A stretch of 64,000 nucleotides of DNA from the NCBI GenBank assembly GCA_030650425.1, contig JAUSED010000012.1, forward strand, positions 64,905-128,904. Reading direction: 5' to 3'. Shown one piece after another: positions 1,371 to 37,295 of this stretch (position 1 is the first letter of the stretch; every line of letters begins with the position of its first letter). Both the position numbers and the translations under genes were made by a program. The notes beneath the pieces were generated by a model that saw only the letters and a list, made by a program, of their open reading frames with translations, made no database searches and was not told the DNA's origin. The stretch is from Candidatus Omnitrophota bacterium. Lineage in GTDB: Bacteria > Omnitrophota > Gorgyraeia > Gygaellales > Profunditerraquicolaceae.

Positions 1371-1373
1371 GGG

Positions 1374-2105: not shown

Positions 2106-2166
2106 ATGATAACAGCTAATTTATTGTTTGTCAATTACACCGATGATGTTATAATAAACTCCAATT

Positions 2167-4541: not shown

Positions 4542-4585
4542 TAGGGATTGACTGAGGCTGTTAAAAATAGTAAAATAAATCCGCT

Positions 4586-5143: not shown

Positions 5144-5146
5144 AAA

Positions 5147-5183
5147 ACAAGGGACCGTTTCCCTAAAGGGAAACGGTCCCTAA
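5147..5183. terminator. Perfect 13-bp stem hairpin (GGGACCGTTTCCC-taaa-GGGAAACGGTCCC) between pyrE and the next gene
   Basis: Seen directly in the sequence. No strong T-tract follows, so it could be a bidirectional or factor-assisted terminator. Confidence 0.45.
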
Positions 5184-5192
5184 TCGATTATA

Positions 5193-6437: not shown

Positions 6438-6551
6438 CGGGTCCTGCTCGGGCCTCGGGGTCCTGCCACCGAAGTTTCCCCATTCCTGCGGGCAAGTTTG
6501 TCCTCGGAATAGGGATGCCCCTCTCGGTGTCACCCCTCGGCAACATTTTAT

Positions 6552-10129: not shown

Positions 10130-10581
10130 GTAAAATTGTCGCCTCTAACCATAAAGGATACCGGGATTATAGCGTTATCGAGAGTTTTGAGTGCGGCATT
10201 GAACTAAAAGGAAGCGAAGTAAAGTCCATCAGGCAGGCTAAAGTTACTTTGAATGACAGCTTTGCCCGCATTGAAGAAGGCGAGCTGTTTTTATATAACA
10301 CGCATATAAGTCCTTATGCTGAAGCTAGTTATATGAATGTCGAGCCAACGCGAAAACGCAGGCTCCTTTTGCATAAGAATCAGATTGAGAAGTTAGAGGG
10401 TAAGTTGACCCAAAAAAGCCTTACCCTCATTCCCCTAAAAGTGTATTTTAATGACCGGGGATTCGTAAAGGTTGAATTGGCTCTTTGTAAAGGAAAGAAG
10501 CTCTACGATAAAAGAGATGATATTAAGCGGCGCGAAACGGATTTACAGATGCGCCGGATGATGAAGAACATAAGAAAATAG
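10126..10581 (+). CDS. smpB: SsrA-binding protein
   Basis: 151 aa; conserved SmpB motifs (…NRKARHDYxI-like start, KRRLLLHKNQI, and a basic C-tail). Confidence 0.9.
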   Translation: MSKIVASNHKGYRDYSVIESFECGIELKGSEVKSIRQAKVTLNDSFARIEEGELFLYNTHISPYAEASYMNVEPTRKRRLLLHKNQIEKLEGKLTQKSLTLIPLKVYFNDRGFVKVELALCKGKKLYDKRDDIKRRETDLQMRRMMKNIRK

Positions 10582-11004
10582 GGGGTGAATTGGGCTCGAC
10601 TTAGGCCGTCGGGTAAGAGCAGCATGTCGCGGACGCATGGTTAGCCGCGTTAAAAACCCGTGCACAATACAAACGCAAACACAAAAAACCGTTTGTTAAA
10701 TAACGTTCAGCCAGTAATGGCAACTCCAGTAATGGGGATGCCGTTATTTGCTGGCGTTATGCCAGTCTTCGGTAACTAAATTACCGAAGCCTCTATCCAT
10801 CCAGCCTACGGGATGAAATAGAGACTTAGTAGGATAGTCCCGCGTAATTTGCCTTTGTAGGCGGGATGAAGCTTTTAAAGGCTGCGGTTTGCAAATCCTG
10901 CCTTGCGGGAGTTGCAAGCGTAAGCGTAAAACACAGGGCTAAACATGTAGCGGCTTTTATTCGGTTGTTTAAGGACGCCGGTTCGATTCCGGCCACCTCC
11001 ACCA
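10581..11004 (+). ncRNA. ssrA: tmRNA (transfer-messenger RNA), one-piece
   Basis: 5' end GGGGGUGAAUUGGGCUCGAC pairs with the 3' CACCUCC-ACCA, including the G3:U wobble alanine identity element. The T-arm is GCCGGUUCGAUUCCGGC. A long P2 helix pairs ~10605–10620 with ~10953–10968. PK1 stems: CGCGG (10628–32) with CCGCG (10645–49), and GCAUGG (10635–40) with CCGUGC (10658–63). It lies immediately 3' of smpB. Confidence 0.9.
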
Positions 11005-19694: not shown

Positions 19695-19770
19695 GGTGGC
19701 TATAGCTCAATTGGTTAGAGCGTCTGACTGTGGCTCAGAAGGTTTGCGGGTTCGATCCCCGTTAGCCACC
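19695..19770 (+). tRNA. tRNA-His (anticodon GTG) with G-1
   Basis: Extra 5' G pairs with discriminator C. Acceptor GTGGCTA/TAGCCAC, anticodon stem TCTGA/TCAGA with loop CUGUGGC, T-loop TTCGATC. Resembles E. coli tRNA-His. Confidence 0.85.
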
Positions 19771-21199
19771 CTAATTCTAAATGGCGGTTTTCCGCCATAA
19801 ATTTGAAGTCGGAACTATAAGAAACAATTAGGGTTTTGTTATACAGCTTAAGGTTCGATACAATTTTTTGCAAAAAATCACGCTGGGCGTCGGGATTTGC
19901 CTCCGCTGCGATGTAACTGGCTTGGTGAGCAAGAGTTAGAAAGTTTTTGAAGTGTTCGAGCCAGTCCCCGTTACTGTCACCCTTTTCTGAAATATCGAAC
20001 TTCCTGCTAAACAATTCGGCTTTCTTCTGCTTATACTCTTCGTCGGTAATGATACCCTTTAGCGACATGTCCAAGAGCCGCTTTAGCTGGTCGTCAACCT
20101 CTTGCGTTTTCATTTCGCCGCTAATCCGGTTATGAACTTTTTCCGCTGCAAGGAACGCCCGCTCTCGCTCTAACTCTTTTATCATCCAGGCATAGGCATT
20201 GTCATCAAGCGCAACTTTCTCGATGGCCTCTTTGACTTGTTGGGCGAGATTTTCTTCTCTAAGAAAAACAGAAGACTGCTGGCAGGGATCGCGTTTTTTC
20301 GAGCAATGATAGTAGTGATGTCCTTTTTGAACCTCGGCTGTTATTTGGCAGCCACATTCAGCGCACCTTATAAACCCACGGAAGACAAAATAATGTTTCC
20401 TCTCGTAAGAAGGTTTGCTCCTGAATCTTAAAATCTCCTGCACCTTATCAAATAATTCTTTGTTTATAATAGGCGGGTGGCTGCCCTGGAAAATCTCGCC
20501 CTTATACACAAAGAGGCCAAGATAGAATTGATTCGTTAATATCCGGTGGACGTTACTGTACGAAAGCGGGCGCTTGGCTCTCTTGCTCACCAAGCCAGAC
20601 GCAGTCGCCAATTTTCTCAACTCATCAACCGTATATCTTCCTTCAGCGCACAAGGCATACAATCTCTGTACAAGGGGAGAGGCGAGGGGATCAACAGTTA
20701 TTTTACCTCTATCGTTTAAATACCCGATAGGCGCGAATGCGGGATATTCGCCAAGCCTTACCTTTTCGCGCAAGCCACGCTTAGTGTTTTCGCTTAGATT
20801 ATCAACGTAGTATTTACTCTGACCGAAAATAATATTGAGCATAAACTTGCCTTGTGCGCTGTTATCGAAGCGGTAAGTAGGGAAGCGAAGATCAAGGATA
20901 TCCCCGGTATCTACGAGATAGATAATTTTTCCGCCATCTATCGAGTTGCGCGCAAGTCTATCCGGATGCCAGGCGATGATGCCGGACGCCTCACCTTTCT
21001 CAATTCGTTTAATCATTTCGTCAAATATCGGGCGTCCGGGTGACTTAGCTGTCTTGGCTTCTTGAAATTCCTGAACTATTAAGAGGTTTTCTTTCTTGCC
21101 GTATTCGCGAACTTCGTTTAATTGCGACTGAATAGAGAGGACTTGCTTATCTTCTGTGTCGGTAGACTTGCGCGCATACAAGAAATATTTCATCTCCAC
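19715..21199 (-). CDS. Large serine recombinase (resolvase catalytic domain + recombinase domain + zinc ribbon + coiled coil)
   Basis: Catalytic motif YARKSTDTEDKQ near the N-terminus; zinc ribbon CAECGC...HCSKKRDPC; 494 aa. The last ~62 codons run through IR-L and antisense into the 3' half of tRNA-His. Confidence 0.9.
   Translation of the reverse strand: MEMKYFLYARKSTDTEDKQVLSIQSQLNEVREYGKKENLLIVQEFQEAKTAKSPGRPIFDEMIKRIEKGEASGIIAWHPDRLARNSIDGGKIIYLVDTGDILDLRFPTYRFDNSAQGKFMLNIIFGQSKYYVDNLSENTKRGLREKVRLGEYPAFAPIGYLNDRGKITVDPLASPLVQRLYALCAEGRYTVDELRKLATASGLVSKRAKRPLSYSNVHRILTNQFYLGLFVYKGEIFQGSHPPIINKELFDKVQEILRFRSKPSYERKHYFVFRGFIRCAECGCQITAEVQKGHHYYHCSKKRDPCQQSSVFLREENLAQQVKEAIEKVALDDNAYAWMIKELERERAFLAAEKVHNRISGEMKTQEVDDQLKRLLDMSLKGIITDEEYKQKKAELFSRKFDISEKGDSNGDWLEHFKNFLTLAHQASYIAAEANPDAQRDFLQKIVSNLKLYNKTLIVSYSSDFKFMAENRHLELGWLTGIEPANLLSHSQTL
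19773..19901. repeat. Left copy of a perfect 129-bp inverted repeat (IR-L)
   Basis: Reverse complement is identical over 129 bp to 21324–21452. Starts 3 nt after tRNA-His. Encodes 43 C-terminal residues of the recombinase. Confidence 0.9.
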
Positions 21200-21323
21200 A
21201 CCTCCTTAGAAAATTGGCGACTGCGTCCGTCAAGCATTTACGGAACTTATATCGCAGCGGGTCTGCTCAAAGAGCAGACAGTTATAAAATTTTGAGTCCT
21301 CAACAACTCAAAATTATTTAACA

Positions 21324-21452
21324 GGCAAATCCCGACGCCCAGCGTGATTTTTTGCAAAAAATTGTATCGAACCTTAAGCTGTATAACAAAACCCTAATTG
21401 TTTCTTATAGTTCCGACTTCAAATTTATGGCGGAAAACCGCCATTTAGAATT
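21324..21452. repeat. Right copy of the perfect 129-bp inverted repeat (IR-R)
   Basis: Identical to the reverse complement of 19773–19901. Lies 125 bp upstream of the recombinase start codon. Confidence 0.9.
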
Positions 21453-22080
21453 GGGGTCCTTGCTTTCTGGTAATCGAAAGATTTTTAGCTCCAAATATAC
21501 TTAATTTTTTCTCGTCTCTCTGAAACCCCTCTACTCCCCGGGGTAAAGCCCTAAGGAAACAGCTTAAAATGCACCGCGCCCACAAACAAATTCTTTCCCG
21601 GAAAGAACCTCTACTACTATATTATCGCCGCTCTGCCCCGCCCTTTAAGGTTACTGTATCTAATACCGGGGTAAAGCTGGTCTCTAAGGAAACAGCTTAA
21701 ATGCACCGCGCCCTGGGGGGCGCTCCCACATTGAGCGTGCATTGGCGCTCGCTGGGCCGCTCGCTTCGAGCTAATTTTAGTGCGTGTGCGGCGCAGCTGT
21801 GGCTTGCGCCGGGCGGGGGCGGCGCAAGCCACAGCGTCCTCACCCGACATGCTGTTACAAGCTAAAAACAAAATTTTTTAGAGAGGTTCGTCCGCTATGC
21901 CGCTATTACTCCCCAAATACAGCTTTGGACGCGGCATTGCTGCGCCTCTCCCGATCAACACTTTAAAGCTCAAACATTGGGGCGGGCGTGGTGCTGCCTG
22001 TCCTCCGCAGGAGGAGGCACGTCCGCCCCACATCTACCCTTGGCTCCGGCAAAATTTGGTGCGGGCAAATTTTGCCTAAC
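21453..22080. other. GC-rich (about 65–70%) structured non-coding segment with two ~45-bp direct repeats and several perfect hairpins
   Basis: Direct repeats 21538–21581 and 21666–21713. Perfect 16-bp hairpin 21796–21835. 10-bp hairpin GGCAAAATTT/AAATTTTGCC near 22040–22075. No ORF with coding character. Confidence 0.4.
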
Positions 22081-22454: not shown

Positions 22455-24392
22455 ATGCAAAATTTAATCGATGACTTGCTGAAGTTATTAAAAAAAGACG
22501 AGCGTCTTGTTTCGCAAGATGGCGTACTTTTAAAAAATCAAACACAGGAATTGGCGCGCAAAAATGATCCCCAGCTCATAAAACTTTTGCTTTCTGATAA
22601 AGCCATAAAACAGCACTTCTTTTTTGAAGTCGAAAAGGCTCTGATTTTTGATAAAGAAAAATTCGTCCGCTTTGTATCCAATAAACAGTTTTTACCGGAT
22701 TCATATACCACATTTTCTCAAAATATTGGACTATTGCACGAAGATGGAAGGATGTTCAGAGAAATTAATGCTGAAAAAGAAGTTGTTTTGGTTTGGCCTT
22801 ACAAGGATTGTATTTTGGAAGGCGGGATGACCAAAGAAGACCTAAAGCGCGATGAGATTTTTTATAACGAAACCTTGGCGCCGGATGACATTAACCGCTT
22901 GATGGATGCCAAAGTTTTCACCGATTTCAAACGGATAGACAAAAAGGGCGAGCATAAACTGGACGGCTTCAAGCGTGATGAAAGAGGTACAATTAAAGAC
23001 AATTTGATTATTAAAGGAAATAACCTTCTTGCACTTGCTTCGCTTAAAAAAGAATTCGCAGGGAAAGTGAAATTGATTTACATTGATCCGCCATATAATA
23101 CCGGAGGTGCCGTTGATACCTTTACATACAACAATGACTTTGATCACTCCACGTGGTTAGTTTTTATGAAAAATAGGCTTGAAATAGCCAAATCATTTCT
23201 GAGAGAGGATGGATTTATTGCAATTACTATCGATCACGAGGAATTATATTATTTAGGCGCATTAGCCGATGAAGTATTTCGTAGAGAAAATCGGGTTGGT
23301 TTAGTCACAATCTATATAAATCCAAAAGGAAGACAGCATGAGAAGTTCTTTTCTGCTGCGACTGAATACATGCTTATATATGCGAAAAATAAAGTTAGTG
23401 CGAAATTTAATAAAATTACGCTAGATGATGAGATAGCCGAAACTTTTGATTTTTCTGATGATGATGGGGATTATCGCTTGGAAAAATTTATTAGAGCAAG
23501 AACTAGTACGTCGAGAAAAAATAAGCCGGATTTTTATTATCCGATTTATGTAAGTAACGATCTGAAGGATATTACGCTCATTAAGAAACCTGGCTATAAG
23601 GCGGTATTTCCTATCCAAAATGGTGTTGAATACTCTTGGAAAACTATTTCCAAGACATTTGATGAGCGAAATATAAACGGCTTTTTTGTTGCCAAAAAGG
23701 AACAAGGCGAAATTGTTATTTATCATAAATACTACGAACAGCAGGTTTTAAAGAACCTATGGACTGATAAAAAGTATTTTCCTGAATTTCAGGGAACAAA
23801 CTTGTTAAAAAAACTTTTGGGGGCGAACCTGTTTAGTTATCCTAAATCTTTGTATGCGGTGGTAGACACATTAAAGATTATGACCAGCGGAAATGATATT
23901 GTTATGGATTTTTTTGCAGGCTCAGGCACCACTGGGCACGCAACCCTAGCGTTAAACGAGGAAGATGAACAACAGAGGCAATTCATTTTGGTTGAACAAT
24001 TAGATAGACATATTGATGTTTGTATAAAAAGAATAAAAAAAGTCTTGGAACAAAGCACAAAACAGAACAACTTCATATATATGGGGCTCGCAAAATGGAA
24101 CGAGGATTGGATAGAAAAAATAGAAAAAGCTAAGACCGGAAAAGAGCTTGCCAAACTTTGGGACGAGATGAAAGAAATCGCCTTTTTGAGCTACAAAGTT
24201 GATCCAAAAACAGTTGATGCAAATTCCAAAGAATTCGCAGATTTGGGGATTACCGACCAAAAGAAGTTTTTGGTTGAATGCTTGGATAAAAATCAGCTTT
24301 ATATCAATTTGAGCGAGATTGAGGATAAAGAATACGGGGTGAGCAAAGATGATAAAGATCTGAATAAGAGCTTTTATAATGGGAAACAATGA
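22455..24392 (+). CDS. mod: Type III R-M Mod subunit (beta-class N6-adenine DNA methyltransferase)
   Basis: Motif IV DPPYNTGG precedes motif I FFAGSGTTGHA (beta-class order); 645 aa; overlaps the start of res. Confidence 0.85.
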   Translation: MQNLIDDLLKLLKKDERLVSQDGVLLKNQTQELARKNDPQLIKLLLSDKAIKQHFFFEVEKALIFDKEKFVRFVSNKQFLPDSYTTFSQNIGLLHEDGRMFREINAEKEVVLVWPYKDCILEGGMTKEDLKRDEIFYNETLAPDDINRLMDAKVFTDFKRIDKKGEHKLDGFKRDERGTIKDNLIIKGNNLLALASLKKEFAGKVKLIYIDPPYNTGGAVDTFTYNNDFDHSTWLVFMKNRLEIAKSFLREDGFIAITIDHEELYYLGALADEVFRRENRVGLVTIYINPKGRQHEKFFSAATEYMLIYAKNKVSAKFNKITLDDEIAETFDFSDDDGDYRLEKFIRARTSTSRKNKPDFYYPIYVSNDLKDITLIKKPGYKAVFPIQNGVEYSWKTISKTFDERNINGFFVAKKEQGEIVIYHKYYEQQVLKNLWTDKKYFPEFQGTNLLKKLLGANLFSYPKSLYAVVDTLKIMTSGNDIVMDFFAGSGTTGHATLALNEEDEQQRQFILVEQLDRHIDVCIKRIKKVLEQSTKQNNFIYMGLAKWNEDWIEKIEKAKTGKELAKLWDEMKEIAFLSYKVDPKTVDANSKEFADLGITDQKKFLVECLDKNQLYINLSEIEDKEYGVSKDDKDLNKSFYNGKQ

Positions 24393-27300
24393 TGTTATAT
24401 GACGAATTTAATACATATAAAAATTTTGCCGGTGCCGATGTTTTCAAAAATAAGGCGTTAGCAAAATCGGAGATTTTGAAAAGTATCAATCCGGCTTTTC
24501 CTGCGCGTGAATACCAGAAGGAAACGCTGGGACGGTTTTATTATTATTGTGAAGAATATCACCAAAAACAAAAGCCGATCCATTTGATGTTTAATATGGC
24601 GACCGGTTCGGGCAAGACGCTCATCATGGCGGCCAATATTCTATATTTATATCAAAAAGGCTATCGTAATTTCATTTTTTTCACCCGCCTTGGCAATATC
24701 ATCCAAAAGACGAAAGCCAATTTTCTCGATCCGACTTCTAAGAAATATCTCTTTGCCGACAAAATAGTATTTGGCGGGAAAGAAGTAAAAATCAATGAAG
24801 TAGATAATTTTGAGGGCGTCAGTGATGAGGACATAAGCGTTATTTTTTCTACCACATCGCTTTTACACTCTCGTTTTAATTACGCCCGCGAAAATGTTTT
24901 AACTTACGAAGATTTTGAGGATAAGAAAATTGTGTTGATTGCCGATGAAGCGCATAACTTGTCAGCGGAAACAAACGGTAAGATTAGCAAAACTGATGAA
25001 GAAGACCGCCGAAATTGGGAAAACACAGTAATGCGGATTTTGAACGCCAACAGCCAAAAAGACAATGTGCTTTTGGAATTTACGGCTACTGCCCGGCTTG
25101 AACAGGAATACCCGGAAATCATTGAAAAATATAAAGACAAGGCAATTTATCGGTACGATCTTAAAGAATATCGCTTGGACGGATTTTCAAAAGATGTGCG
25201 AACGTTACAGATTGATGCGCCGATTATGGAGCGAGTGCTTTCGGCGGTGATTATTTCACAGTACCGTTTAAAAATAGCGGGAAAGCACAAAATCGCATTA
25301 AAGCCGGTAGTTATGTTTAAGGCCAATAGGGTAAGTATTCCCAAGGAAGGAATATCTAAAGCGTATAATCCGCAAATTGTCGTTTCAAGTATTTTTAAGG
25401 ATTCTTTTCACAAGCTTATTGCCGGGCTCAATGAAAAAGCAATTCAACAGCAAGCCAAAATCAAAGATGACACATTACAAAAGGTTTTTCGATTCTTCAA
25501 AGAGCAAAAAATCTCACTATCTAATTTGGCGGAAGAAATCAAAAATGATTTTGCGCCTGAAAAATGTATAACAGTTGATGATGATAAAGATTTGGAGCAA
25601 AAACAACTTCTGTTGAATTCACTGGAGGATCGAAATAATGAAATTCGAGCGGTTTTTGCTACTGAAAAATTAAACGAAGGTTGGGATGTTCTCAACCTTT
25701 TTGATATTGTCCGTCTTTACAATAGCCGTGACGCTAAAGGCAATAAGCCGGGGAAAACGACGGTTCAGGAAGCACAGCTGATTGGGCGAGGAGCAAGATA
25801 CTATCCATTTACGATTGCGGATTTTACTGATCCATATCGCCGAAAATATGATGCTGATACACAAAATGAGCTTCGGATTTTAGAACAGCTTTATTATCAT
25901 AGCGTTACCAATACCAGATATATTCAAGAGCTAGAAACTGTCCTAGTCCGTGAAGGCATTATTCCTTCTCGAACAGTGCAAAAAGAAATAAGAATAAAAG
26001 CCGATTTTAAACTTAGCGATTTTTGGAAGGAAGGATACATTTTCTTAAATTCACGCAAGCAAAATTTGGGTAAGGATATTTTTGCGCTTTCGGACGCCAA
26101 AGCGGTATTTGATTACAATGCCGAAAGCAATATTTTTCAATTACCGACAAGAGAAGCAATTGAAAAAGATTTATTCGTTGCTGGCGCTGGTGTTGGAGAA
26201 AAAGCTAAGATAGAAATCAAGGAATTTAGACTCATTGACTTAGGAAGGCATGTCATTCGCACTGCTTTGATGAAGATACCTTCTGGGCAATTTAACGAGT
26301 TAAGCAAGATATTCGGCAATATAGAATCTGCGAAAGATTTTATTTCAAACGAAAAATACCTTGGTGGAGTCAAAATAAAAGTCAAGGGCACAAGTGAGCA
26401 GGTAGCGAATCTTCTGCAGGTTGAAAAATTAAGCATTGCCGGATTTGTGGTTGATAAAGTGCTAATAATTGCAACTAAAGAGAAAAAAGAATACTACGGG
26501 ACAAATGAATTTAAGGCTCATTTGGTCCAGAAGATATTTGAAAACGATAAAGTGCTCCAGTTGGACAGTGAAAGCCCGAGAGCGCAAAATATGCGGGATT
26601 TCGATTTTGATAATAAGGAATGGTTTGCGCAAAACGAAATCTGGGGGACTAGCGAGGAAGAGGCATTTTTGCGATTTATTGATGAGGCAATAGCCAAACT
26701 ACAGAAGAAATATCAAGATATTGCCTTGCTCCGCAATGAGCAGTTTTTCAAAATTTACAGCTTTGAAAATGGCGAGCCATTTTATCCGGATTTTGTTTTG
26801 TTTTTGACCGAGAAGAAGACGAAGCAAGAAGTTATGTATCAAATATTTATTGAGCCCAAAGGCGACCAATTCTTGGATGCGCAGAACACCTTTGAACAAT
26901 CTAAAGAAAGCTGGAAGCAAAAATTGCTTCTTGAAATAGAAAATAATCATACTGTTGATTTAAAAATAGAAAACAAGGATTTTCGTTTAATAGGCTTGCC
27001 TTTTTATAATAAGCAATTGCAGGAGAAGTTTAGCGAGGCTTTTGAGCGATTTGTTGATTCGCCCAGACAGGAGAAATCGGATTTATTCTTTAGCGATGTT
27101 ATTCCGGAATCAACTTACTCAGAAGGCTATCTCCCAATTTGCGATCTTCAGGCAGTAGCAACTTCTTTCCGAGAGCAAAAGACTCCTACGATTAAAGGCT
27201 GGAAGCCCGCGAAGAAGAAGTATACAGAGGGTTATTTTATCGCTCAGGTCATAGGCAAATCTATGGAATCGACCATACCTGACGGAAGCTGGTGTTTGTT

Positions 27301-27562
27301 CCGGCCAGACCAAGGCGGTTCGCGTAATGGCAAAATTGTGTTAGCTGAATCACGCAGGGTAACTGATCCCGAAACCCAGCAAAGTTTTACCATCAAGAGG
27401 TATAGAAGCGAAAAGAGGCAGTTTAAGGATGAAACGTGGATCCACACCAAAATAACTCTTTCCCCGGACAATAAAGAATTCAAAGATATCGTCCTAAAAA
27501 ATGTTCGTGAAGATGAATTCCACATAGCGGCGGAGTTTGTGGAGGTCTTGTCAAAAGAATAG
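24389..27562 (+). CDS. res: Type III R-M Res subunit (SF2 helicase + endonuclease) with C-terminal LexA/S24-like autopeptidase domain
   Basis: Walker A MATGSGKT; DEAH box LIADEAHN. The C-terminal ~120 aa align to the LexA C-domain: GKSMESTIPDGSW (Ser motif), NGKIVLAE, and FTIKRY (Lys). Confidence 0.8.
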   Translation: MMLYDEFNTYKNFAGADVFKNKALAKSEILKSINPAFPAREYQKETLGRFYYYCEEYHQKQKPIHLMFNMATGSGKTLIMAANILYLYQKGYRNFIFFTRLGNIIQKTKANFLDPTSKKYLFADKIVFGGKEVKINEVDNFEGVSDEDISVIFSTTSLLHSRFNYARENVLTYEDFEDKKIVLIADEAHNLSAETNGKISKTDEEDRRNWENTVMRILNANSQKDNVLLEFTATARLEQEYPEIIEKYKDKAIYRYDLKEYRLDGFSKDVRTLQIDAPIMERVLSAVIISQYRLKIAGKHKIALKPVVMFKANRVSIPKEGISKAYNPQIVVSSIFKDSFHKLIAGLNEKAIQQQAKIKDDTLQKVFRFFKEQKISLSNLAEEIKNDFAPEKCITVDDDKDLEQKQLLLNSLEDRNNEIRAVFATEKLNEGWDVLNLFDIVRLYNSRDAKGNKPGKTTVQEAQLIGRGARYYPFTIADFTDPYRRKYDADTQNELRILEQLYYHSVTNTRYIQELETVLVREGIIPSRTVQKEIRIKADFKLSDFWKEGYIFLNSRKQNLGKDIFALSDAKAVFDYNAESNIFQLPTREAIEKDLFVAGAGVGEKAKIEIKEFRLIDLGRHVIRTALMKIPSGQFNELSKIFGNIESAKDFISNEKYLGGVKIKVKGTSEQVANLLQVEKLSIAGFVVDKVLIIATKEKKEYYGTNEFKAHLVQKIFENDKVLQLDSESPRAQNMRDFDFDNKEWFAQNEIWGTSEEEAFLRFIDEAIAKLQKKYQDIALLRNEQFFKIYSFENGEPFYPDFVLFLTEKKTKQEVMYQIFIEPKGDQFLDAQNTFEQSKESWKQKLLLEIENNHTVDLKIENKDFRLIGLPFYNKQLQEKFSEAFERFVDSPRQEKSDLFFSDVIPESTYSEGYLPICDLQAVATSFREQKTPTIKGWKPAKKKYTEGYFIAQVIGKSMESTIPDGSWCLFRPDQGGSRNGKIVLAESRRVTDPETQQSFTIKRYRSEKRQFKDETWIHTKITLSPDNKEFKDIVLKNVREDEFHIAAEFVEVLSKE

Positions 27563-28565: not shown

Positions 28566-29705
28566 ATGGATAGATTGATTATTATAGGCGAGCGCCTCAA
28601 ACGCGCTCGCGAATCGTTGGGATTAACTCAAGAAGATGTGGCCGCCAAGCTTGAGATTGGCAGGCCTCGTTATTCTGATATTGAAAACGGTAAAAGGGAC
28701 GTTCCGTTAAAAGATCTCTACCGGTTTGCTGAATTTTACGGACGTCCGATCGATTATTTCGTTAAAGAAACCTTATTGACTGATAGCGGGTTCAAAGTTC
28801 TTTTCAGGAAGACCGAAGGCGACGAAGAAGTTGCTCGAGTTGTTACTGAATTTGAAAATCTATGTGAGAAAATGTGCGAGCTTGAGAATATATCAGGCGT
28901 TACAGTCCGGCCGCCAGTCAGTCAGGATTATCAATTTGAACGGAATAGAGAATGGTATTGGGGCAAGCATTACGCGGATATTGAAAGAAAACAACTTGAT
29001 CTCGGCCAAGCCCCACTGCGAAATTTAAGCCAGCTTCTCGAAGAGAAACGCGGCCTTAAGATTTTTTATCTGCCTATCCCGCCTGAACGCGGCGTTTACG
29101 GAATGTTTACTTATGATCAGAAGATGGGCGGATGCGTTCTTATTAATTCAAATCCGAATTTTGGCAATCAGCTTTTTTCGCTCGCGCATGAATACGCTCA
29201 TTTTGTGTTCCATAAAGAGAAGTTGGGTATTATTTCGACGGAGCAAGAGAGAAACTCAACAGATGAGAAAGTCGCGAATAGTTTCGCAAGCAATTTCCTA
29301 ATACCGGAAGATACCTTGCGCGATCTTTTTAGTATGAGAATCAAGGAAGATGATGATGTTAAGTCGGAAGATGTTATTTATCTTGCGGATTATTTCGGAG
29401 TTAGCTTTACCGCAATGGTATATCGCCTTAATAATTTAAAACTTATTACAGATAAGATTAAAGATGAACTTATAAATTATACTTGGGTAACCTCCGTTCG
29501 TGAATCGATGGGGATATCTGAGCCGGAGCGTAGCAGATCGAAATTTCCTACCCTTTACCTGCATCTCGCCATTAAGGCCTTTCAACAGGGGAAATTAACT
29601 ACTGCCAAACTCGCCGACTTCCTGGAAATTCCTCTTTATCAAGCGATGGATCTGGGGAGAAAATTAAGAGGGAGTATTCAGGATGGGCCCGGCGACTCTG
29701 TTTAA
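28566..29705 (+). CDS. HTH-XRE / ImmA-IrrE (M78 metallopeptidase, COG2856) fusion protein
   Basis: N-terminal HTH LTQEDVAAKLEIGRPRYSDIENG; C-terminal zinc motif SLAHEYAHFVFH. Confidence 0.8.
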   Translation: MDRLIIIGERLKRARESLGLTQEDVAAKLEIGRPRYSDIENGKRDVPLKDLYRFAEFYGRPIDYFVKETLLTDSGFKVLFRKTEGDEEVARVVTEFENLCEKMCELENISGVTVRPPVSQDYQFERNREWYWGKHYADIERKQLDLGQAPLRNLSQLLEEKRGLKIFYLPIPPERGVYGMFTYDQKMGGCVLINSNPNFGNQLFSLAHEYAHFVFHKEKLGIISTEQERNSTDEKVANSFASNFLIPEDTLRDLFSMRIKEDDDVKSEDVIYLADYFGVSFTAMVYRLNNLKLITDKIKDELINYTWVTSVRESMGISEPERSRSKFPTLYLHLAIKAFQQGKLTTAKLADFLEIPLYQAMDLGRKLRGSIQDGPGDSV

Positions 29706-30177
29706 CGGGAATAAAGTTGTTTTTGATGCCATGGTTATTATTAATTTCCATGGCCTTATTATGCTCGATAAGCTTATCGGTTGGGCTCCAAAAGAAATTG
29801 TTATTGAGAAAAGTATAAGAAAAGAAGCGAGCCATTCAATGAACGGCCCGATAGACCTTGAACCGTATATATCCAGCGGTTCTGTAATAGAAGAAGAAAT
29901 TCACGGCAAGGATCAAGAAGACCTTTTTTATGAGTATCGCAATAAAAGAATAGGTGATGCGGTTATCCATGCGGGTGAAGCCGCTTGCCTTGCGCTGGCA
30001 ATCTCAAAAGGCTACGGCCTTGCCAGCGATGAACTCGTTGTAAGGAATGAATTTAAATCTCGTTGTTCTGGCAAGACGTGCGTTCACTCGTGGGATATCG
30101 TGACAATTTCGCAGAAGCTCGGGTTTATTAATCAAGCCGAAGCGAACGCCTTGAAGAAAGGCTTATATTACGTATAG
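29683..30177 (+). CDS. Hypothetical protein, possible PIN-like nuclease fold (DUF4411-like partner of ImmA fusions)
   Basis: Overlaps the upstream gene by 23 nt. An early acidic residue in VVFDAMVIINF is consistent with PIN strand 1. Weak. Confidence 0.3.
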   Translation: MGPATLFNGNKVVFDAMVIINFHGLIMLDKLIGWAPKEIVIEKSIRKEASHSMNGPIDLEPYISSGSVIEEEIHGKDQEDLFYEYRNKRIGDAVIHAGEAACLALAISKGYGLASDELVVRNEFKSRCSGKTCVHSWDIVTISQKLGFINQAEANALKKGLYYV

Positions 30178-30179: not shown

Positions 30180-30518
30180 ATGCGAGGAAAATTTACACTT
30201 AATACCGCGAATATCGATGCCACAGTACCGGCTACCTCCGGCGCTTATGTGCTGGTTAACAGTAGCAATAACGCCGTTTATGTTGGAATGTCAGATACTG
30301 ATTTAAATGGCCGGTTAAAAAATCACCTGCCTGAGCGTGAAGAAAATTCGTGGATAAAGCGAAGCTTTCCGACAGACTTTTACTTTGAGTCGACAGCTAA
30401 TTCGCAAGAAGCTTATAGATTGGAATGCGAATGGTTCCATCAATATCGTCCGAGCTGTAATACCGCGCATCCTGCAAAATTATCTTATAGCTGGGCCTGC
30501 CCAATCTGCGGGTTATAA
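30180..30518 (+). CDS. GIY-YIG domain protein
   Basis: GAYVL...YVG...R...E spacing typical of the GIY-YIG core; 112 aa. Confidence 0.55.
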   Translation: MRGKFTLNTANIDATVPATSGAYVLVNSSNNAVYVGMSDTDLNGRLKNHLPEREENSWIKRSFPTDFYFESTANSQEAYRLECEWFHQYRPSCNTAHPAKLSYSWACPICGL

Positions 30519-30660
30519 ATCCCTGCATTTTCTGAAATCGCTGATAATATTTTGAAACCATCGTTCAGATAATTGCCCCGCTATTCGAAAATTTAGAATA
30601 GTTCGCTTATATAGATTTTGATTGCTCGGGCGTATGGGTATATAAGGGAGTATTATTAAA

Positions 30661-33600
30661 GTGATTCCAATTTTTTTCTGCCATATATGCGGGACAAATG
30701 GTAATTGTAATTTAGTAATTAAGCTAGCCGAGAAATTAACAGGCGATATTGAAGGGATAGACCCTTTTGTTGCTTGTCAAAATGAACGATGGAATTCTGC
30801 CAAAGACTTAAATGCGTCATTAAGCCAATCATATATCTTCATCCCAATTGTCAGTCCAGGATTTAAAGATAGAAACAATTGCACTTCAGAATTAGCGCAA
30901 ACCCGGAATCGAAAACAATTCGGGAAATTTCCTCTTATTATTCCTATTAAATTTAATTGTGGCGATGCTCTTATGAATAATCTTGGTTTTACCATAGATC
31001 AAGAAACGGAACAGGGCGATAAGTGGATAGACTTCTCTAATGAAGTCGAATTTGATTCGAAATATGAAGAATTATATCGGCGGATTCACTACTGGTCAAT
31101 AGACAATGATCTGGTAACAAATAAAGATTTCCACAAAGACCGTAAGGTATTAGATGTTATATTGGGCGAGAATGATCCAACATCCAGCCAGATAAAAATA
31201 GCTATAGATTATTGTCGTAAAGGACAAGAATACAGCCTGTATTTTTTGAAAAATCTTTCCAATCCTAAATGGCTGAGTCATTTGTATGCATCAGGGTTTT
31301 TTGCTTTTAATCCAGTTCCAGTAGAATCAGAAAAAAATGAAGGATTTTACAGTATTCCATTATGGGCAGCTGTTATATTTTTAGAAAAAATTGCTGTGGG
31401 CTTGGGTAAAAAAGATAAAGAAAGAATGCTTGATATTATTCGCAAGGTATCTAAGCCAGCTCCTCCTGCAGTAAAGCAAGATAATTGGAGAACATGGCAA
31501 TCGTTTGTAAAAATTCTCTCAAAGTTACAGATTGATGACATTTTAAGCGATGACATTGAGATGATCGCAGAATGGCTATATAGTAAATTTGATACATCAA
31601 TGGTGGTTATTGAGATTGGAAAAACTCTTTTGCCGAAGGTACTAACAGAAGTAAAAACAGCTGAGGATGCTAACAAGGTTGTTCGGATTATCCAAATTGT
31701 ATTAGATTCTGTCAGAGTTGAAAGAAGACATGGCATGATGTCTCACGGTCTTCAAAAAATGTTTAAAAATAATTCTGATTTACTCGGAGAAAAATGTGGG
31801 TTAGCACTTTTGGAAATTATACGAAACAAACTTGAAAGCGTTGTAGAAGAAAAGGATGATGCATATTGTTATATTTGGCGTCCTGCTATTGAAGATAGCG
31901 AACAAAATGTCGCTTCAGATGAGTATAGGCATATTCTTATTGCAGGTTTTAGGGATATTTATCTTAAATTCGCCTCTTTTCATAATGCAGAAACCTTTTT
32001 GCAATCATGTTACGAGTCGCCCAGAGATATCATCCAACGTATAGCATTTTATGTTATCGGTAAGCTATTTGATAAATATAAGAAATTAGCAGAGGAGATC
32101 CTGCTAAAAGACGCCAATAAAACATTTCTCAAAAGTAATTATCACCACGAGTTATATTTTTTGATCACAAAACATTTCACATTGTTATCAACGGATGTCC
32201 AATCTTCAGTGATTGATATTATTTCTGGCCTGACTGGTGATTGGAAAGATGATTCGGACAAGGATAGATTAAACTGTATGCTTCGTAGACGATGGTTATA
32301 TGCGGTTAAACAATCTGGATACAATATTTCAAATGAGTTAGAAGACAAATATTTTAAAGATATTGAATATAAACCTGAACATCCAGAATTTTTGAGTTAT
32401 ATCGGTCCTGTGTCATGGGGTGATGAATCAATGTTTTCATCGGCAGAGTTATTGTCTAAAGGTGGCATTGAAGAAATGGTTACCTTTTTAAATAATTTTG
32501 AAGGCAAAAATAGATTTGGAGAGACAGCTATACGAGAAGCAGGCCAGTCTTTTAAAGAAGCGATTAAAAATAAGCAGGAAGTATTTGATAATCATTTGCT
32601 TGAGTTTAAAAAGCTTAAATATGAGTATTGGTATTATGCAGTGCAGGCTTTTGAAGAACTCGTGCAAGATAAAAAGACGATTGGATGGGAGAAGGTTTTA
32701 GAGTTTTGCAATGAGATTATTTTAAGTGAAATATTATGGGATGGCAAAGGCAAAAAGAGCGATTACCCGCTTGAGCCAAAAAAAGATTGGATCCCGGCCG
32801 TTATATCAGATTTACTGAGAAAGGGGCTTCAAGAAGATTCAATCATTTTTACAGAATCGCAATATGGGTTAATTGATAAGGTTGTTAGGGTACTGCTTGA
32901 TAAACAACCCAGTACAGCGAGTGGAGATGATAAGGATGCGTTGACAGAAGCGATTAATACTACAAAAGGGCACGTGTTGGAATGTCTCAAGAGTTATGTC
33001 CTAAGAAGATATAGAGATTTTGAAAGATTGCCCGATAAAGGAATCAGGGAGAAAGAATCTTTTTGGAAAGAGGTAGAGCCATTATTTGTTCGGGAGATTG
33101 AAGGAACAAAGGAAGGAAGCTTCGAATTTTCAAGTCTATCCGGTGCTTATTTGCCTAATCTGTATTATTTGAATAAAGATTGGGTTACTTCGAATATTAA
33201 CAATATCTTTCCTACTGAAGAAAAACATTGGCGATGCGCTATGCAAGGATATTCTTACGTGAATACCGTTTATGCGGTTATCTACAATATATTAAGAGAT
33301 AACGGTCATCTCAAACGTGCACTTGATACAAAATTTTCGAACGATCAGACAAGAAGCCGAATTATAGAAAACATAGCGGTATCATATTTAAGGGGACAAG
33401 AGACTATAGATGGTCAAAACAGCTTATTTAAATATATTTTAGAGAAATGGAACCACGATGATATTGAAGAAATAATAAGTCTGTTTTGGTCTCACAGGGA
33501 TGTTGAATTAGACTGCGAACAAAAGGCAAGAATATTTAATTTTTGGCGGCATTGTTTTAATCAGATAAAAGGGAAAGAGGACGCACATAAGGATATTCTT

Positions 33601-33945
33601 TCCGATTTGAATCTGCTAGCGGTGTTCTTTGATCCGTTAACGGCAGAACAGGTGGATTGGTTAAGACAGTCAGTTAAATACGTGGAGGAGCGTTACCATA
33701 GTTCATTCCTGCTGGAATATTTTGATAAATTAGCAGAGAACAATCCCAAAGATGTGGGAAACGTATTTTTAATAATGTTAGAGAAAACCATCCCATGGTA
33801 TAAACAGGAAAATATTCAATCTGTCGTTGAAAAGTTTTATAAAGCAGATTTGAAAAATGAAATTGCTAATCCAATTTGTGATAAATATGCAAGGGCGGGC
33901 TTCGAGTTTTTGATAGAAGTTTATCAAAAATATAACAAGAAATAA
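30661..33945 (+). CDS. Large (1094 aa) protein with N-terminal TIR-like domain and a long alpha-helical/Trp-rich C-terminal region
   Basis: GTG start with AAGGGAG RBS. TIR-like blocks PIFFCHICG (betaA), SYIFIPIVSPGFKDRNNCTSELAQ (betaC-alphaC with the Glu), FPLIIPIKF (betaD). Confidence 0.5.
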   Translation: MIPIFFCHICGTNGNCNLVIKLAEKLTGDIEGIDPFVACQNERWNSAKDLNASLSQSYIFIPIVSPGFKDRNNCTSELAQTRNRKQFGKFPLIIPIKFNCGDALMNNLGFTIDQETEQGDKWIDFSNEVEFDSKYEELYRRIHYWSIDNDLVTNKDFHKDRKVLDVILGENDPTSSQIKIAIDYCRKGQEYSLYFLKNLSNPKWLSHLYASGFFAFNPVPVESEKNEGFYSIPLWAAVIFLEKIAVGLGKKDKERMLDIIRKVSKPAPPAVKQDNWRTWQSFVKILSKLQIDDILSDDIEMIAEWLYSKFDTSMVVIEIGKTLLPKVLTEVKTAEDANKVVRIIQIVLDSVRVERRHGMMSHGLQKMFKNNSDLLGEKCGLALLEIIRNKLESVVEEKDDAYCYIWRPAIEDSEQNVASDEYRHILIAGFRDIYLKFASFHNAETFLQSCYESPRDIIQRIAFYVIGKLFDKYKKLAEEILLKDANKTFLKSNYHHELYFLITKHFTLLSTDVQSSVIDIISGLTGDWKDDSDKDRLNCMLRRRWLYAVKQSGYNISNELEDKYFKDIEYKPEHPEFLSYIGPVSWGDESMFSSAELLSKGGIEEMVTFLNNFEGKNRFGETAIREAGQSFKEAIKNKQEVFDNHLLEFKKLKYEYWYYAVQAFEELVQDKKTIGWEKVLEFCNEIILSEILWDGKGKKSDYPLEPKKDWIPAVISDLLRKGLQEDSIIFTESQYGLIDKVVRVLLDKQPSTASGDDKDALTEAINTTKGHVLECLKSYVLRRYRDFERLPDKGIREKESFWKEVEPLFVREIEGTKEGSFEFSSLSGAYLPNLYYLNKDWVTSNINNIFPTEEKHWRCAMQGYSYVNTVYAVIYNILRDNGHLKRALDTKFSNDQTRSRIIENIAVSYLRGQETIDGQNSLFKYILEKWNHDDIEEIISLFWSHRDVELDCEQKARIFNFWRHCFNQIKGKEDAHKDILSDLNLLAVFFDPLTAEQVDWLRQSVKYVEERYHSSFLLEYFDKLAENNPKDVGNVFLIMLEKTIPWYKQENIQSVVEKFYKADLKNEIANPICDKYARAGFEFLIEVYQKYNKK

Positions 33946-33973
33946 TAATTTAAAGCCCTCTTTAGGGGAATCA

Positions 33974-35755
33974 ATGAATTTAAATCAAGTCGGAGTTTAT
34001 GTACCGGTATCAGAAGTGTTCCCGGATATACAAAGCAATCTTGAAACTTTCAAAGATATATTGCAACAATTAAGTCGTACTGACACATTATTTTGGTGCG
34101 CAAGAATAAATTTAATTATCACAAATCCTATTGAAAACGGCCATATTTCAAGGCAGCAGGTTGCAATCGACAAATTTTTGACGAAGAGCGAGATTGAGGC
34201 AGTAAATCAATTTGCCATGGCTCATGGCGGGGCTAATAGAGTTACGGTCTTTTTCCGAGGCCAACTCCTTGAATTAATGCGATGGGCATTGCTGTATTGT
34301 CACAATCATCCTAACGATGGAAAGACTTTTGAAGATCCAAATACAAGAAGGATGTTTGTACAGGCTGCACTTATTGCAAGTGATCTTTGGTCAAAGTGGG
34401 TGTATGGAAATAGGTTCTCTTTAGAGGGAGGGATAAAGATTGCAAGGGAAAGATCCTTAGGAGCTATTCGAAAAGCCATTGAGGGCACATCGCTATGTGC
34501 AGAATTGACGAGATCATTTGGAAGGGGATGGACTATTTTTATGGATTATTTTCGTAAGCAATATGGTTTGCTTGCTAGCGAATTTCAGTCCAAAGCAGGT
34601 TTATCAATTGAGGACTATTTTAAATGCCTATTGATTATCACAGTTCATTTTGCCAATCCTAGAAGCAATAATACCGGCATTTTTAATGCAACAACTTTTG
34701 CTGATTCTACACCGTTGAAAGACGTGTTTCAGAAATATATCACATTTGAGTCACAGTCAATAGATGAGTTTAAAAACGCATTATGGGGCAGTGGTATAAA
34801 TAAATTAGAAATGCAATATGAAATGGAATATGATTATTTATCTATGAGAGAAAAACCAATTTTACGTGCTGAGGATAATCGAGCAATTATTTTAGATCCA
34901 ATATTTTATAGCGAAAAAGCAAGTATTGGGCCGTTGTTTGTATTGACAAAGAATAAAGCACGTGGGAAAGCAAACGAGGTTTTTAGTGCCTTCGGCAAAG
35001 CGTTTGAAAATTATTCCTGTGACATTCTGAATAAGATGTTTCCAGATATTAATGCTATCAAACAATTGTTTTGTAATCTGAAAAAAAAGGATTTAAACGA
35101 AAGAGAATCAGAAATAGACGCTTGTATTAATAAAGGCTCTGAGTCGGCCATATTTGAAATAAAAGCAGTTTGGATTCGCGAAGATAAAATATTAAATGAA
35201 AATTATGAGACATATCTACAGCATTTAAGAGAAAAATATGGTGTTGTTGGGCAGCAGGACAATCCAAAAGCGCAAACAATTAAAGGAGTTGGGCAGCTCG
35301 CACGAATATTAAATAATATATTTCGTGAGGAATTTCAGGCAAATAACAGAGAATTTAGTGAAATTGTAACAATTTATCCCATACTATTAGTTTATGATAG
35401 TTTTTTAACCGCGCCAGTTTATGGCAATTTTCTTGCTTCAGAATTTGAAAAATTACTTAAACCGGATCACAAAAGGGGCTCTGGCGAACTCATTAAAGGC
35501 AGATTCACGGTGCATCCCTTAATCATATTAACAATAGAAGATCTAGAAAATTTGGAACTTTCGGTCGAACATTTTAGTTTTTTCGAACTATTATCTGATT
35601 ATTCAACGAGCTGCCCAGACCGTTTGATATCTCTAAAAAACTACATTGCTGACTCGAAATATAATAAACAGATATATCGCAATAAAAATCTTGCCAATAA
35701 GTGTCTAGAGCTATTTAAAGAAGCCAAGCTAGCAATAGCGACAAAAGAGCAGTAG
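33974..35755 (+). CDS. Hypothetical protein (593 aa), unknown function, co-operonic with the TIR-like gene
   Basis: 28-bp gap to the upstream gene; no recognisable motif. Confidence 0.35.
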   Translation: MNLNQVGVYVPVSEVFPDIQSNLETFKDILQQLSRTDTLFWCARINLIITNPIENGHISRQQVAIDKFLTKSEIEAVNQFAMAHGGANRVTVFFRGQLLELMRWALLYCHNHPNDGKTFEDPNTRRMFVQAALIASDLWSKWVYGNRFSLEGGIKIARERSLGAIRKAIEGTSLCAELTRSFGRGWTIFMDYFRKQYGLLASEFQSKAGLSIEDYFKCLLIITVHFANPRSNNTGIFNATTFADSTPLKDVFQKYITFESQSIDEFKNALWGSGINKLEMQYEMEYDYLSMREKPILRAEDNRAIILDPIFYSEKASIGPLFVLTKNKARGKANEVFSAFGKAFENYSCDILNKMFPDINAIKQLFCNLKKKDLNERESEIDACINKGSESAIFEIKAVWIREDKILNENYETYLQHLREKYGVVGQQDNPKAQTIKGVGQLARILNNIFREEFQANNREFSEIVTIYPILLVYDSFLTAPVYGNFLASEFEKLLKPDHKRGSGELIKGRFTVHPLIILTIEDLENLELSVEHFSFFELLSDYSTSCPDRLISLKNYIADSKYNKQIYRNKNLANKCLELFKEAKLAIATKEQ

Positions 35756-35893: not shown

Positions 35894-37069
35894 ATGTTAT
35901 CTTTCGAGAAAGAATTTCAAGAAATTGGACATTGTGGTGGGCAGTATACTGTAGATGTAAAAACTGCCGCTGATGGACGTAGAAGCTATCAGTTGGGTAT
36001 GCGGCATTCGCGTCCAACCCCGGCGTCATTTTTTGCTGTTTATTTTCTTCCACAAGGTATTCCTGTTGGCATGATTCAGCTTGGAGGCATTGGGCAAGCG
36101 TGGAATCCTGCGCCAGTTCCCGGTAGTCTATCAATCTTTATTGCTTCAGATACTCAAAGCATGTTTGGTCATCAATGTCAAAGGTGCGGTGGCTACTGGA
36201 GATCAAGATCGTCTCCTGTGCGCTGGCAAATGACATGTCCTTATTGTGGGTTACGAGCTGAAAGCCATGCCTTTTTGACGGAAGGTCAGCTTAAGTATGC
36301 TAAGGCTTGTTGCGAGCTAATAGAACAAGCCCTATCCTCTGATAAAGACGGTGAATCTGTTGTGGATATGGACAAAGTGGCAGATGCAGTAGGAAAAGAC
36401 AGCGAAAAACCAAAGTTTTATTATGCAGAACAAAGCCAGCAGAATAAATACACATGTCCGGTTTGTAAAGAACTTAATGACATACTCGGGCGATATGGCT
36501 ATTGCTCCAGCTGTGGTACATATAATGGTGTTTATGAGCTCGAAAGTGATCTAAAGGATATTCGCGATAAGATTGCAAAAGGCAACCAGTATGAAGATTG
36601 CGCGAGAGATGCAGTAGCCGCTTTTGACAGTTTCGCTCGTCAAATAGTAAAACAGCTGGCAAAACGTATCCCTATGACACCTGCACGACAAAAAGAATGG
36701 ACTGGAAAGCTGTTCCATAATATAAAGCCATGCGCCGATGCCTTAAAAACCGTTTTTGACATTGATGCATTTAAGAGCTTTAAACAGGACGATATTAGTT
36801 TTGCTGTTTTTATGTTTCATCGAAGGCACATTTATGAGCATAACGGGGGCGAGGTTGATGAAAAGTACATTAAAGATAGCGGGGACACCTCTGTGCGTGT
36901 TAAGCAAGTTATACGCGAAAGCTCCCAAACAGCAAATAGAATTGTTGGTCTTGTTTCCAAGATGGCGCAAAATATTTCTGATGGATTTCATGAGATTTTT
37001 CCGGCTGAAGATATGCCGATTAAGCTCCAGCAGAATTCAAGGAAGAGCAAGGTCGCGACTGGCGTTTAA
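35894..37069 (+). CDS. Hypothetical protein (391 aa) with two zinc-ribbon motifs; GC-richer than its neighbours
   Basis: CQRCGG...CPYCG and CPVCK...CSSCG; codon usage is more GC-rich than flanking genes. Confidence 0.35.
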   Translation: MLSFEKEFQEIGHCGGQYTVDVKTAADGRRSYQLGMRHSRPTPASFFAVYFLPQGIPVGMIQLGGIGQAWNPAPVPGSLSIFIASDTQSMFGHQCQRCGGYWRSRSSPVRWQMTCPYCGLRAESHAFLTEGQLKYAKACCELIEQALSSDKDGESVVDMDKVADAVGKDSEKPKFYYAEQSQQNKYTCPVCKELNDILGRYGYCSSCGTYNGVYELESDLKDIRDKIAKGNQYEDCARDAVAAFDSFARQIVKQLAKRIPMTPARQKEWTGKLFHNIKPCADALKTVFDIDAFKSFKQDDISFAVFMFHRRHIYEHNGGEVDEKYIKDSGDTSVRVKQVIRESSQTANRIVGLVSKMAQNISDGFHEIFPAEDMPIKLQQNSRKSKVATGV

Positions 37070-37159
37070 TGGCTGGTTTGATAATACATCGGATTAAACG
37101 GCGTCGGTTGGCTGATCATAAGTGTTCGGACAGCGCGAAGCCATCGACCCCAAATGTTA

Positions 37160-37217
37160 CCCTCATACGAACACAGGCTCAAGCGAGCCACAGATTCGTA
37201 TGAGGGTTTTTCTTTTT
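37160..37217 (+). terminator. Rho-independent terminator (12-bp perfect stem CCCTCATACGAA…TTCGTATGAGGG followed by TTTTTCTTTTT)
   Basis: Seen directly in the sequence; closes the 30.6–37.1 kb block. Confidence 0.75.
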
Positions 37218-37251
37218 ATGAGGCAGAAAGAAGCGTAAAGCCCTCAGAAAT

Positions 37252-37295
37252 ACGTTAAGCACGTTAAGCACACGTTAAGAGTTAAGCATTAAGCA
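37252..37295. repeat. Tandem array of 5 copies of the 8/9-mer (A/C)CGTTAAGC(A)
   Basis: acgttaagc-acgttaagc-acacgttaag-agttaagc-attaagc. Confidence 0.6.

Follow-up and report, generated by a model that had tools for sequence, protein, structure and literature searches.

A TIR-headed, Dsr1-type sensor protein and its neighbours P2 and P3 in an island of a Candidatus Omnitrophota genome

Two kinds of single-gene defence are among the closest described counterparts of the genes considered here. Dsr1, defence-associated sirtuin 1, is reported from the work of Gao and colleagues in 2020 and of Garb and colleagues in 2022, and GAPS1 is reportedly an anti-phage system from GMT islands found by Mahata and colleagues. 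We compare with them three consecutive genes, P1, P2 and P3, of a Candidatus Omnitrophota metagenome-assembled genome, the first of which is predicted to join a TIR domain to a sensor of the Dsr1 type. The genes lie in a 64,000-nucleotide stretch of contig JAUSED010000012.1 (hereafter the window, to which all coordinates refer).

DSR1 is a single-gene system, and NAD+ is depleted during infection (10.1101/2021.12.14.472415). Two further sources, the second of which is the characterisation of the sensor published in Nature in 2026, describe the Dsr1 sensor as homologous to that of Avs7 and as combined in nature with a variety of effectors, split forms among them; in E. coli Dsr1 and Salmonella Avs7 its trigger is the major capsid protein of the phage (PMC12803255, PMC13581612). 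As companions of the sensor the same sources list "NADases, nucleases and protein kinases", and the available portions of their main text name no TIR domain. NAD+ depletion or a capsid trigger is known only for Dsr1 of B. subtilis and E. coli (10.1101/2021.12.14.472415, PMC13581612). GAPS1 is a single-protein defence with a PD-(D/E)xK nuclease, triggered by a capsid protein; this trigger and the dormancy phenotype are known only for the Vibrio and E. coli proteins (10.1101/2023.03.28.534373).

The three open reading frames are co-directional and lie exactly where the original prediction had placed them, with 28 nt between P1 and P2 and 138 nt between P2 and P3. That prediction took them for a new two- or three-gene defence block unlike the known systems. 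We consider a different reading likely, namely that these are three unrelated modules, with P1 a TIR-headed, Dsr1-type phage sensor that acts without a partner, P2 a GAPS1-like nuclease, and P3 a stand-alone protein. The main features are the following:

30617-30660, plus strand: relic of a type I hsdR 3' end (about 45 nt, including the ribosome-binding site AAGGGAG), directly 5' of P1
30661-33945, plus strand: P1, 1094 residues, GTG start, Shine-Dalgarno sequence AAGGGAG 10 nt upstream
30661-31065, plus strand: TIR domain of P1 (residues 1-135), predicted NADase effector; Glu77 codon at 30889-30891
31066-33945, plus strand: residues 136-1094 of P1, linker and Dsr1/Avs7-type helical-repeat sensor (PADLOC Dsr1, NCBIfam Dsr1)
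33974-35755, plus strand: P2, 593 residues, ribosome-binding site AGGGGA, N-terminal helical domain and C-terminal PD-(D/E)xK nuclease domain
35036-35563, plus strand: PD-(D/E)xK core of P2 (residues about 355-530)
35117-35119 and 35156-35164, plus strand: predicted active-site residues of P2, D382 and E395-x-K397
35894-37069, plus strand: P3, 391 residues, two CxxC...CxxC zinc ribbons and an RRHxYEHxGGExD block, both invariant in the family
37159-37218, plus strand: intrinsic-terminator-like hairpin (37159-37207, 13-bp outer stem) and U-run, closing the row of genes

The TIR domain and the sensor of P1

P1, which is identical to the hypothetical protein Q7K98_07660, begins with a genuine TIR domain according to profile searches and a structural model. 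The Pfam profile TIR_2 gives P1 itself 23.7 bits (E=7e-5), below the gathering cut-off of 28 bits. On the other hand, it is matched at E<=0.01 by all ten full-length relatives of P1 (best 1.1e-8), PF01582 is matched by six, and remoter fusions of TIR and sensor reach 78-102 bits. Searched against the PDB, a family profile of the first 170 residues finds TIR domains exclusively, with L6 on top (1.9e-5) and RPS4, RPPT-TIR, Cat1, RPP1 and SNC1 behind it; the single sequence of P1, searched with phmmer, gives only a marginal match to the TIR domain of L6. An AlphaFold2 model of the region (pLDDT 86, pTM 0.82) has among its top 50 Foldseek matches in the PDB essentially nothing but TIR domains at a probability of 1.00, including AbTir (TMt up to 0.74), MAL, L6, RPP1, SPARTA, SARM1 and MyD88, the exceptions being a SEFIR domain, which is related to TIR, and a protein that carries no annotation. 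Glu77, in an NCxxEL motif, is invariant in 10 of 10 sequences and aligns with the Glu of the L6 motif 'WCLMEL'. The motifs from which a TIR-like N-terminus had originally been proposed map to TIR strand A (residues 2-7) and to the part made up of strand C and helix C that contains Glu77, the very residue that had been singled out as conserved. That proposal is thus upheld by the family matches in Pfam, by the PDB profile and by the model, whereas a match of P1 alone to a TIR profile stays under the threshold.

The remaining ~970 residues had been described as Trp-rich and without a recognisable domain. The first part is true in a mild form, the sensor region containing 2.3% Trp, while the second does not stand, as residues 133-1093 match positions 267-1226 of the 1227 positions of the PADLOC Dsr1 profile (PDLC04166) at E=1.4e-146. 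The NCBIfam Dsr1 model (NF041818) also matches, at E=1.3e-10 and 39.7 bits, far from its equivalog cut-off of 1400 bits. A protein of 1227 residues with the Dsr1 architecture, carrying a SIR2_2 domain (P0262), was the sixth-best match of the profile search; its alignment with P1 covers 974 residues with 44% identity and begins at residue 135 of P1, exactly where the TIR domain ends. No SIR2 match was found in P1, either in Pfam or in the checks of the TIR region, residues 1-135 being occupied by the TIR domain. Nor did Pfam or PADLOC return an NTPase, NACHT or AAA match for P1, and the family profile, searched by sequence against the PDB, brought up no Dsr1 or Avs7 sensor of solved structure. 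By its similarity, P1 clearly belongs to the Dsr1 sensor family, even though it lacks both the defining 'sirtuin' feature and the equivalog score, and it is best described as a predicted Dsr1-type sensor with TIR in place of the usual SIR2 NADase.

The exchange of the two domains is seen across the family. An exhaustive profile search yielded 4,974 representative clusters (50% identity), 2,034 of them at E<=1e-30. The best 150 of these 4,974 include at least 17 with a fused TIR, 10 with a fused SIR2, and about 110 that consist of the sensor only (~930 residues). Among 80 metagenomic loci, SIR2 is fused to the sensor or encoded immediately upstream of it in about 52, and an in-frame TIR is present in 15. 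The sensor-only form is a split Dsr1: two loci, L005 and L006, encode SIR2_2 in a gene of its own that overlaps the 5' end of the sensor gene, and in the split forms this separate SIR2 gene is the sole conserved neighbour of the sensor. Because the TIR version recurs, in at least 17 of the best 150 clusters, it is evidently a real sub-family rather than a one-off, and the replacement of SIR2 by TIR at the same junction on a conserved sensor is a textbook swap of effectors. NCBI already labels some of these fusions simply as TIR-domain proteins. As a separate observation, in two loci (L049, sensor 1126-4377; L065, sensor 3666-6956) a SIR2 gene lies 57-105 nt upstream of a TIR-fused sensor; this SIR2 matches Dsr1-type SIR2 queries, and each of these cassettes thus holds two different NAD+-consuming domains.

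P1 resembles Dsr1 in its homologous C-terminal sensor of ~960 residues, in an N-terminal effector that consumes NAD+ (in P1 by prediction), in the linker, in being a single gene and in its location in a defence island; the single-gene nature extends to the lack of a conserved downstream partner over 89 loci. It differs in having TIR instead of SIR2, in scoring under the NCBIfam equivalog cut-off, in belonging to a clade habitually appended to type I restriction-modification (R-M) operons, and in its uncultivated host. With Avs7 (according to PMC13581612), P1 has in common the type of sensor and interchangeable N-terminal effectors. However, Pfam and PADLOC give no match to a STAND NTPase in P1, so that the tetramerisation mechanism of Avs7 is not simply transferable. 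With the TIR-APAZ protein of SPARTA, the AbTir-type NADases and ThsB of Thoeris, P1 shares the TIR fold, the catalytic-type Glu and presumably the chemistry on NAD+. In contrast to other TIR defence proteins, it has no Argonaute, ThsA, CBASS or Pycsar partner, and its sensing part resides in the same polypeptide; in particular, Pfam and PADLOC reveal no ThsA-like match among the window neighbours of P1. With no match to ThsA, Argonaute or an NTPase in Pfam or PADLOC, P1 is neither a Thoeris nor a CBASS, SPARTA or Avs7 protein.

By analogy, P1 very probably works like Dsr1. Its helical-repeat sensor would bind a phage structural protein, most likely the major capsid protein. We infer that binding of the trigger would then bring TIR domains together to form a composite active site around Glu77, where the assembled domains would hydrolyse NAD+ and starve the phage of it, and that no partner gene would be needed. 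It could be argued instead that the TIR domain of P1 generates a signal in the manner of Thoeris ThsB or plant TIRs (a cyclic isomer of adenosine diphosphate ribose, ADPR, or a related nucleotide) for an effector encoded elsewhere, rather than depleting the bulk of NAD+. The best sequence matches of the domain are indeed plant TIRs (L6, RPS4, RPP1) and Cat1, enzymes whose products are signals or derivatives of ADPR, and some family members weakly match ThsB_TIR. However, the structural matches also include the NAD+-consuming TIR domains of AbTir, SPARTA and SARM1, a conserved adjacent effector (ThsA-like, SLOG, Macro or caspase-like) is found in none of the 89 loci, and the TIR domain holds on the same sensor the exact position of SIR2, a terminal, NAD+-depleting effector. 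We therefore regard a signalling role as unlikely, if the best placed of the alternatives to a depletion of NAD+ by P1 alone.

The attachment of the P1 clade to type I R-M operons

In the close clade of P1, a type I R-M operon has the gene for the TIR-headed sensor, or the pair of SIR2 and sensor genes, attached to its 3' end, with a 4-nt overlap or a 1-nt gap to the last R-M gene. This linkage is present in all six distinct contexts from the targeted look-ups and in six close-clade metagenome loci (L037-L042), not all of which are independent, as L041 is a contig already counted as L008. The window has kept a trace of such an arrangement. The ~45 nt directly preceding P1 are nearly identical to the hsdR 3' end in front of the TIR-sensor gene in three loci (L002, L037 and L038), and a nearly identical hsdR 3' end also precedes the separate SIR2 gene in L005 and L006; the matching junctions lie at about 3105-3149 in L002 and 6976-7020 in L005. 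Further upstream in the window the similarity to hsdR decays, and the type I R-M system itself is gone. In the wider family, Hsd genes are found nearby in only 13 of the 80 loci.

It is tempting to ask whether the cassette of this clade is tied to R-M as a backup or guard that fires upon inhibition of the neighbouring R-M enzyme, as PrrC does with EcoprrI, rather than being purely a sensor of capsids. Such a role would fit the abutment of the cassette on the 3' ends of type I R-M operons in the six contexts and in L037-L042, as well as the relic upstream of P1 and the type III R-M system that lies 3 kb upstream of it. Yet only the 13 loci mentioned above have Hsd genes nearby in the wider family, canonical DSR1 works alone when cloned, defence genes often cluster with R-M genes without any functional coupling, and the window itself has lost the type I system, all of which makes a guard function improbable. 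A more specific scheme, to which we would give equally little credit, portrays the SIR2/TIR-sensor cassette of the clade not as a free-standing sensor of capsids but as a dedicated second layer, translationally coupled to the 3' ends of type I R-M operons, that watches over the R-M enzyme itself or over its blockage by anti-restriction proteins of phages, with TIR and SIR2 as NAD+-destroying heads that are interchangeable and sometimes doubled (L049, L065); the copy in the window would then be an escaped cassette that has kept 45 nt of hsdR.

P2, P3 and the question of partnership

The protein encoded by P2 had been thought to have no recognisable features. It does carry a PD-(D/E)xK fold with the conserved D...(D/E)xK motif at its C-terminus, and the NCBIfam model GapS1 (NF047931) is matched by 22 of 23 members of its family at E<=0.01 (best 5e-15), as the sole family match. 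P2 itself obtains 30.9 bits (E=1.2e-7), well below the cut-off of 320 bits, and is thus a distant relative of GAPS1 and not a member by the curated threshold. Its family comprises at least 293 clusters from many phyla, without Pfam annotation. Like GAPS1, P2 is encoded by a single gene in variable neighbourhoods and has its PD-(D/E)xK domain at the C-terminus, and the spacing between the Asp and the Lys is 15 residues in both (D313/K328 in GAPS1, D382/K397 in P2). As differences, P2 exceeds the GapS1 profile in length by ~140 residues, and the match does not extend to the N-terminal half of P2. Domain searches recognised in P2 no nucleotide-sensor domains (SAVED, CARF, SLOG), and phmmer against the PDB returned nothing. 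The nuclease with D382, E395 and K397 would be the effector, presumably an active one, and the N-terminal helical half is a putative sensor.

The family of P3 is large, with at least 831 clusters, and carries no annotation. PADLOC PDC-M14A matches P3 weakly (E=4.6e-8), and phmmer against the PDB, like the search of PHROGs, adds nothing further. One may speculate that the RRHxYEHxGGExD block is a HEPN-like Rx4H motif, but a HEPN assignment sought with Pfam and PDB profiles produced only zinc-ribbon noise. The homologs of P3 are found in small islets of differing content, where some come after a DpnII/MboI endonuclease gene, others lie next to AAA_21 and RloB or next to TerB_N, and others are near toxin-antitoxin pairs. 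In several of these loci (L116-L120) P3 directly follows a gene of the restriction-endonuclease type (DpnII/MboI in L116 and L117), and in the window it follows the PD-(D/E)xK protein P2. Relatives of P1 and P2 are absent from the contexts of P3 homologs that were examined, and P3 would appear to be a third stand-alone protein, independent of the other two.

The same picture emerges when the neighbourhoods are inspected from the side of P1 or of P2. Relatives of P2 or P3 were found in none of nine targeted look-ups and none of the 80 metagenomic loci around P1 homologs, and relatives of P1 or P3 in none of 26 loci (24 from genomes, 2 from metagenomes) within 8 kb of P2 homologs, so that no synteny exists in the 89 and 26 loci, respectively, an outcome that the original prediction itself had named as speaking against a block. 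Downstream of P1 homologs with 79-83% identity there is an HNH gene (HNH_5) or nothing, and downstream of a homolog with 56% identity there are GIY-YIG and housekeeping genes; over the 89 loci, the downstream neighbour of the sensor varies between GIY-YIG, HNH_5, unknown and housekeeping genes. In DNA sequence the window resembles its relatives only as far as the stop codon of P1. Neither the 280-residue unknown protein nor the GIY-YIG protein of the window gives a tblastn match among genes of similar size near P1 homologs. The genes that precede P2 homologs are GCV_T/DAO, AcrB, Eco57I R-M, CobT-VWA, a STAND-TPR protein and a GT4-conflict/NACHT protein; a hidden conserved class of partners in that position was considered and rejected, the large co-directional genes there being heterogeneous. 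A co-occurrence of P2 with P3, which an equal length of the longest contig for P0037 and P0156 had suggested, was likewise discarded, as tblastn finds no P3 in the contig concerned and P2 is followed there by an HD-domain gene.

P1, P2 and P3 thus appear to be three unrelated single-gene modules lying side by side, and instead of a new block one would have a domain-swapped member of the Dsr1/Avs7-sensor family next to two independent proteins. P1 and P2 are probably co-transcribed in this genome, and their adjacency is a local accident of island assembly. That P1 and P2, with or without P3, constitute a genuine multi-gene system of this lineage, in which the TIR protein would sense or signal and the P2 nuclease would execute, is very improbable. 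In its favour are the co-directional arrangement, the 28-nt gap between P1 and P2 with no terminator in it, the good ribosome-binding site of P2, the one strong terminator past P3, the low G+C content of 0.35 common to P1 and P2 and the known logic of signalling systems that pair TIR with a nuclease effector; against it are the absence of any co-occurrence in 115 related loci examined from either side, the HNH gene or nothing that follows the 79-83% homologs, the end of DNA homology at the P1 stop codon, single-gene experimental precedents for both families, and the lack of a recognised SAVED, CARF or SLOG domain in P2.

Several points weigh against the three-module interpretation that we prefer. 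P1 and its clade are known from sequences and models, and the TIR_2 score of P1 itself (23.7 bits) is under the Pfam gathering cut-off of 28. With 39.7 versus 1400 bits in the NCBIfam Dsr1 model, assigning to P1 the trigger specificity of E. coli Dsr1 stretches the analogy a long way, and the similarity of P2 to GapS1 is far under the cut-off of its model as well (30.9 versus 320 bits). Dsr1-type proteins are without the STAND NTPase that drives the tetramerisation of Avs7, and their TIR domains would have to be brought together by other means. Finally, the 28-nt gap, the missing terminator between P1 and P2 and their similar G+C content of 0.35 make a local functional interaction conceivable.

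The island and the significance of the locus

P1-P3 form the distal end of an island of ~17.5 kb inserted at tRNA-His. The tRNA and recombinase, the R-M genes and the toxin-type genes among which the original prediction had set the three genes are indeed present:

19696-19771: tRNA-His, start of the island
19715-21199, minus strand: large serine recombinase
22455-24392: Mod of a type III R-M system
24389-27562: Res of the same type III R-M system
between Res and the HTH-M78 gene: gene for an unknown protein of 280 residues
28566-29705: HTH-M78 antitoxin-like gene
up to 30177: unknown open reading frame of 164 residues, overlapping the HTH-M78 gene by 23 nt
30180-30518: GIY-YIG gene, before P1

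The G+C content of the island is 0.385 as compared with 0.41-0.43 in its flanks, and that of P3 is 0.431, which sets it apart from P1 and P2 with 0.35. The terminator past P3, predicted earlier at 37160-37217, is confirmed as a hairpin with a U-run (folding free energy -29.5 kcal/mol, z = -6.64, none of 200 shuffled sequences folding as well); a simple scanner had overlooked it, the loop being long and structured in itself. It is followed directly, at the right border of the island, by GTTAAGCA-like repeats in a short series (37254-37295), and genes of the housekeeping type (ArsR, methyltransferases, PNP, pyruvate kinase) continue from 37563 on. A search of that border for att-like direct repeats matching the 3' end of tRNA-His found none, the tRNA is the sole match of an Rfam scan of the island, and no island protein has a match in PHROGs.

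Some further features of the window deserve mention. Res carries at its C-terminus a Peptidase_S24/LexA-like domain (residues 929-1049; Pfam E=2e-9, NCBIfam lexA weak), an uncommon fusion, which may point to self-cleavage or an SOS-linked control of the enzyme. The gene for the large serine recombinase is flanked by inverted repeats of 135 nt (19768-19902 and 21323-21457, 99% complementary), of which the left arm, with its start at the tRNA-His 3' end, overlaps the region coding for the recombinase C-terminus; they could represent an invertible segment or an artefact of assembly. The HTH and M78 peptidase protein matches PADLOC RmrA and CapP and the NCBIfam spr1629 repressor/antitoxin, while the overlapping 164-residue frame has no match in any library searched; the two (28566-30177) are likely a toxin-antitoxin or regulator pair. 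Between 21200 and 22455 there are ~1.2 kb without an open reading frame of at least 100 residues and without an Rfam match, in which an exact direct repeat of 18 nt (21551-21568 and 21684-21701) and a perfect 16-bp hairpin (21796-21835) are found. ARAGORN identifies a tmRNA of 424 nt at 10581-11004, with the atypical tag peptide ATPVMGMPLFAGVMPVFGN.

What looked like a new defence block therefore resolves into three interpretable single-gene modules. The family of P2 gains a testable assignment, as predicted nucleases distantly related to GAPS1. As a case P1 is ordinary, and it is mildly interesting for two reasons, the clean exchange of SIR2 for TIR and the attachment of its clade to the 3' ends of type I R-M operons. 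The exchange may be useful for asking whether one sensor mechanism can switch on two unrelated NAD+-consuming folds without a STAND NTPase.

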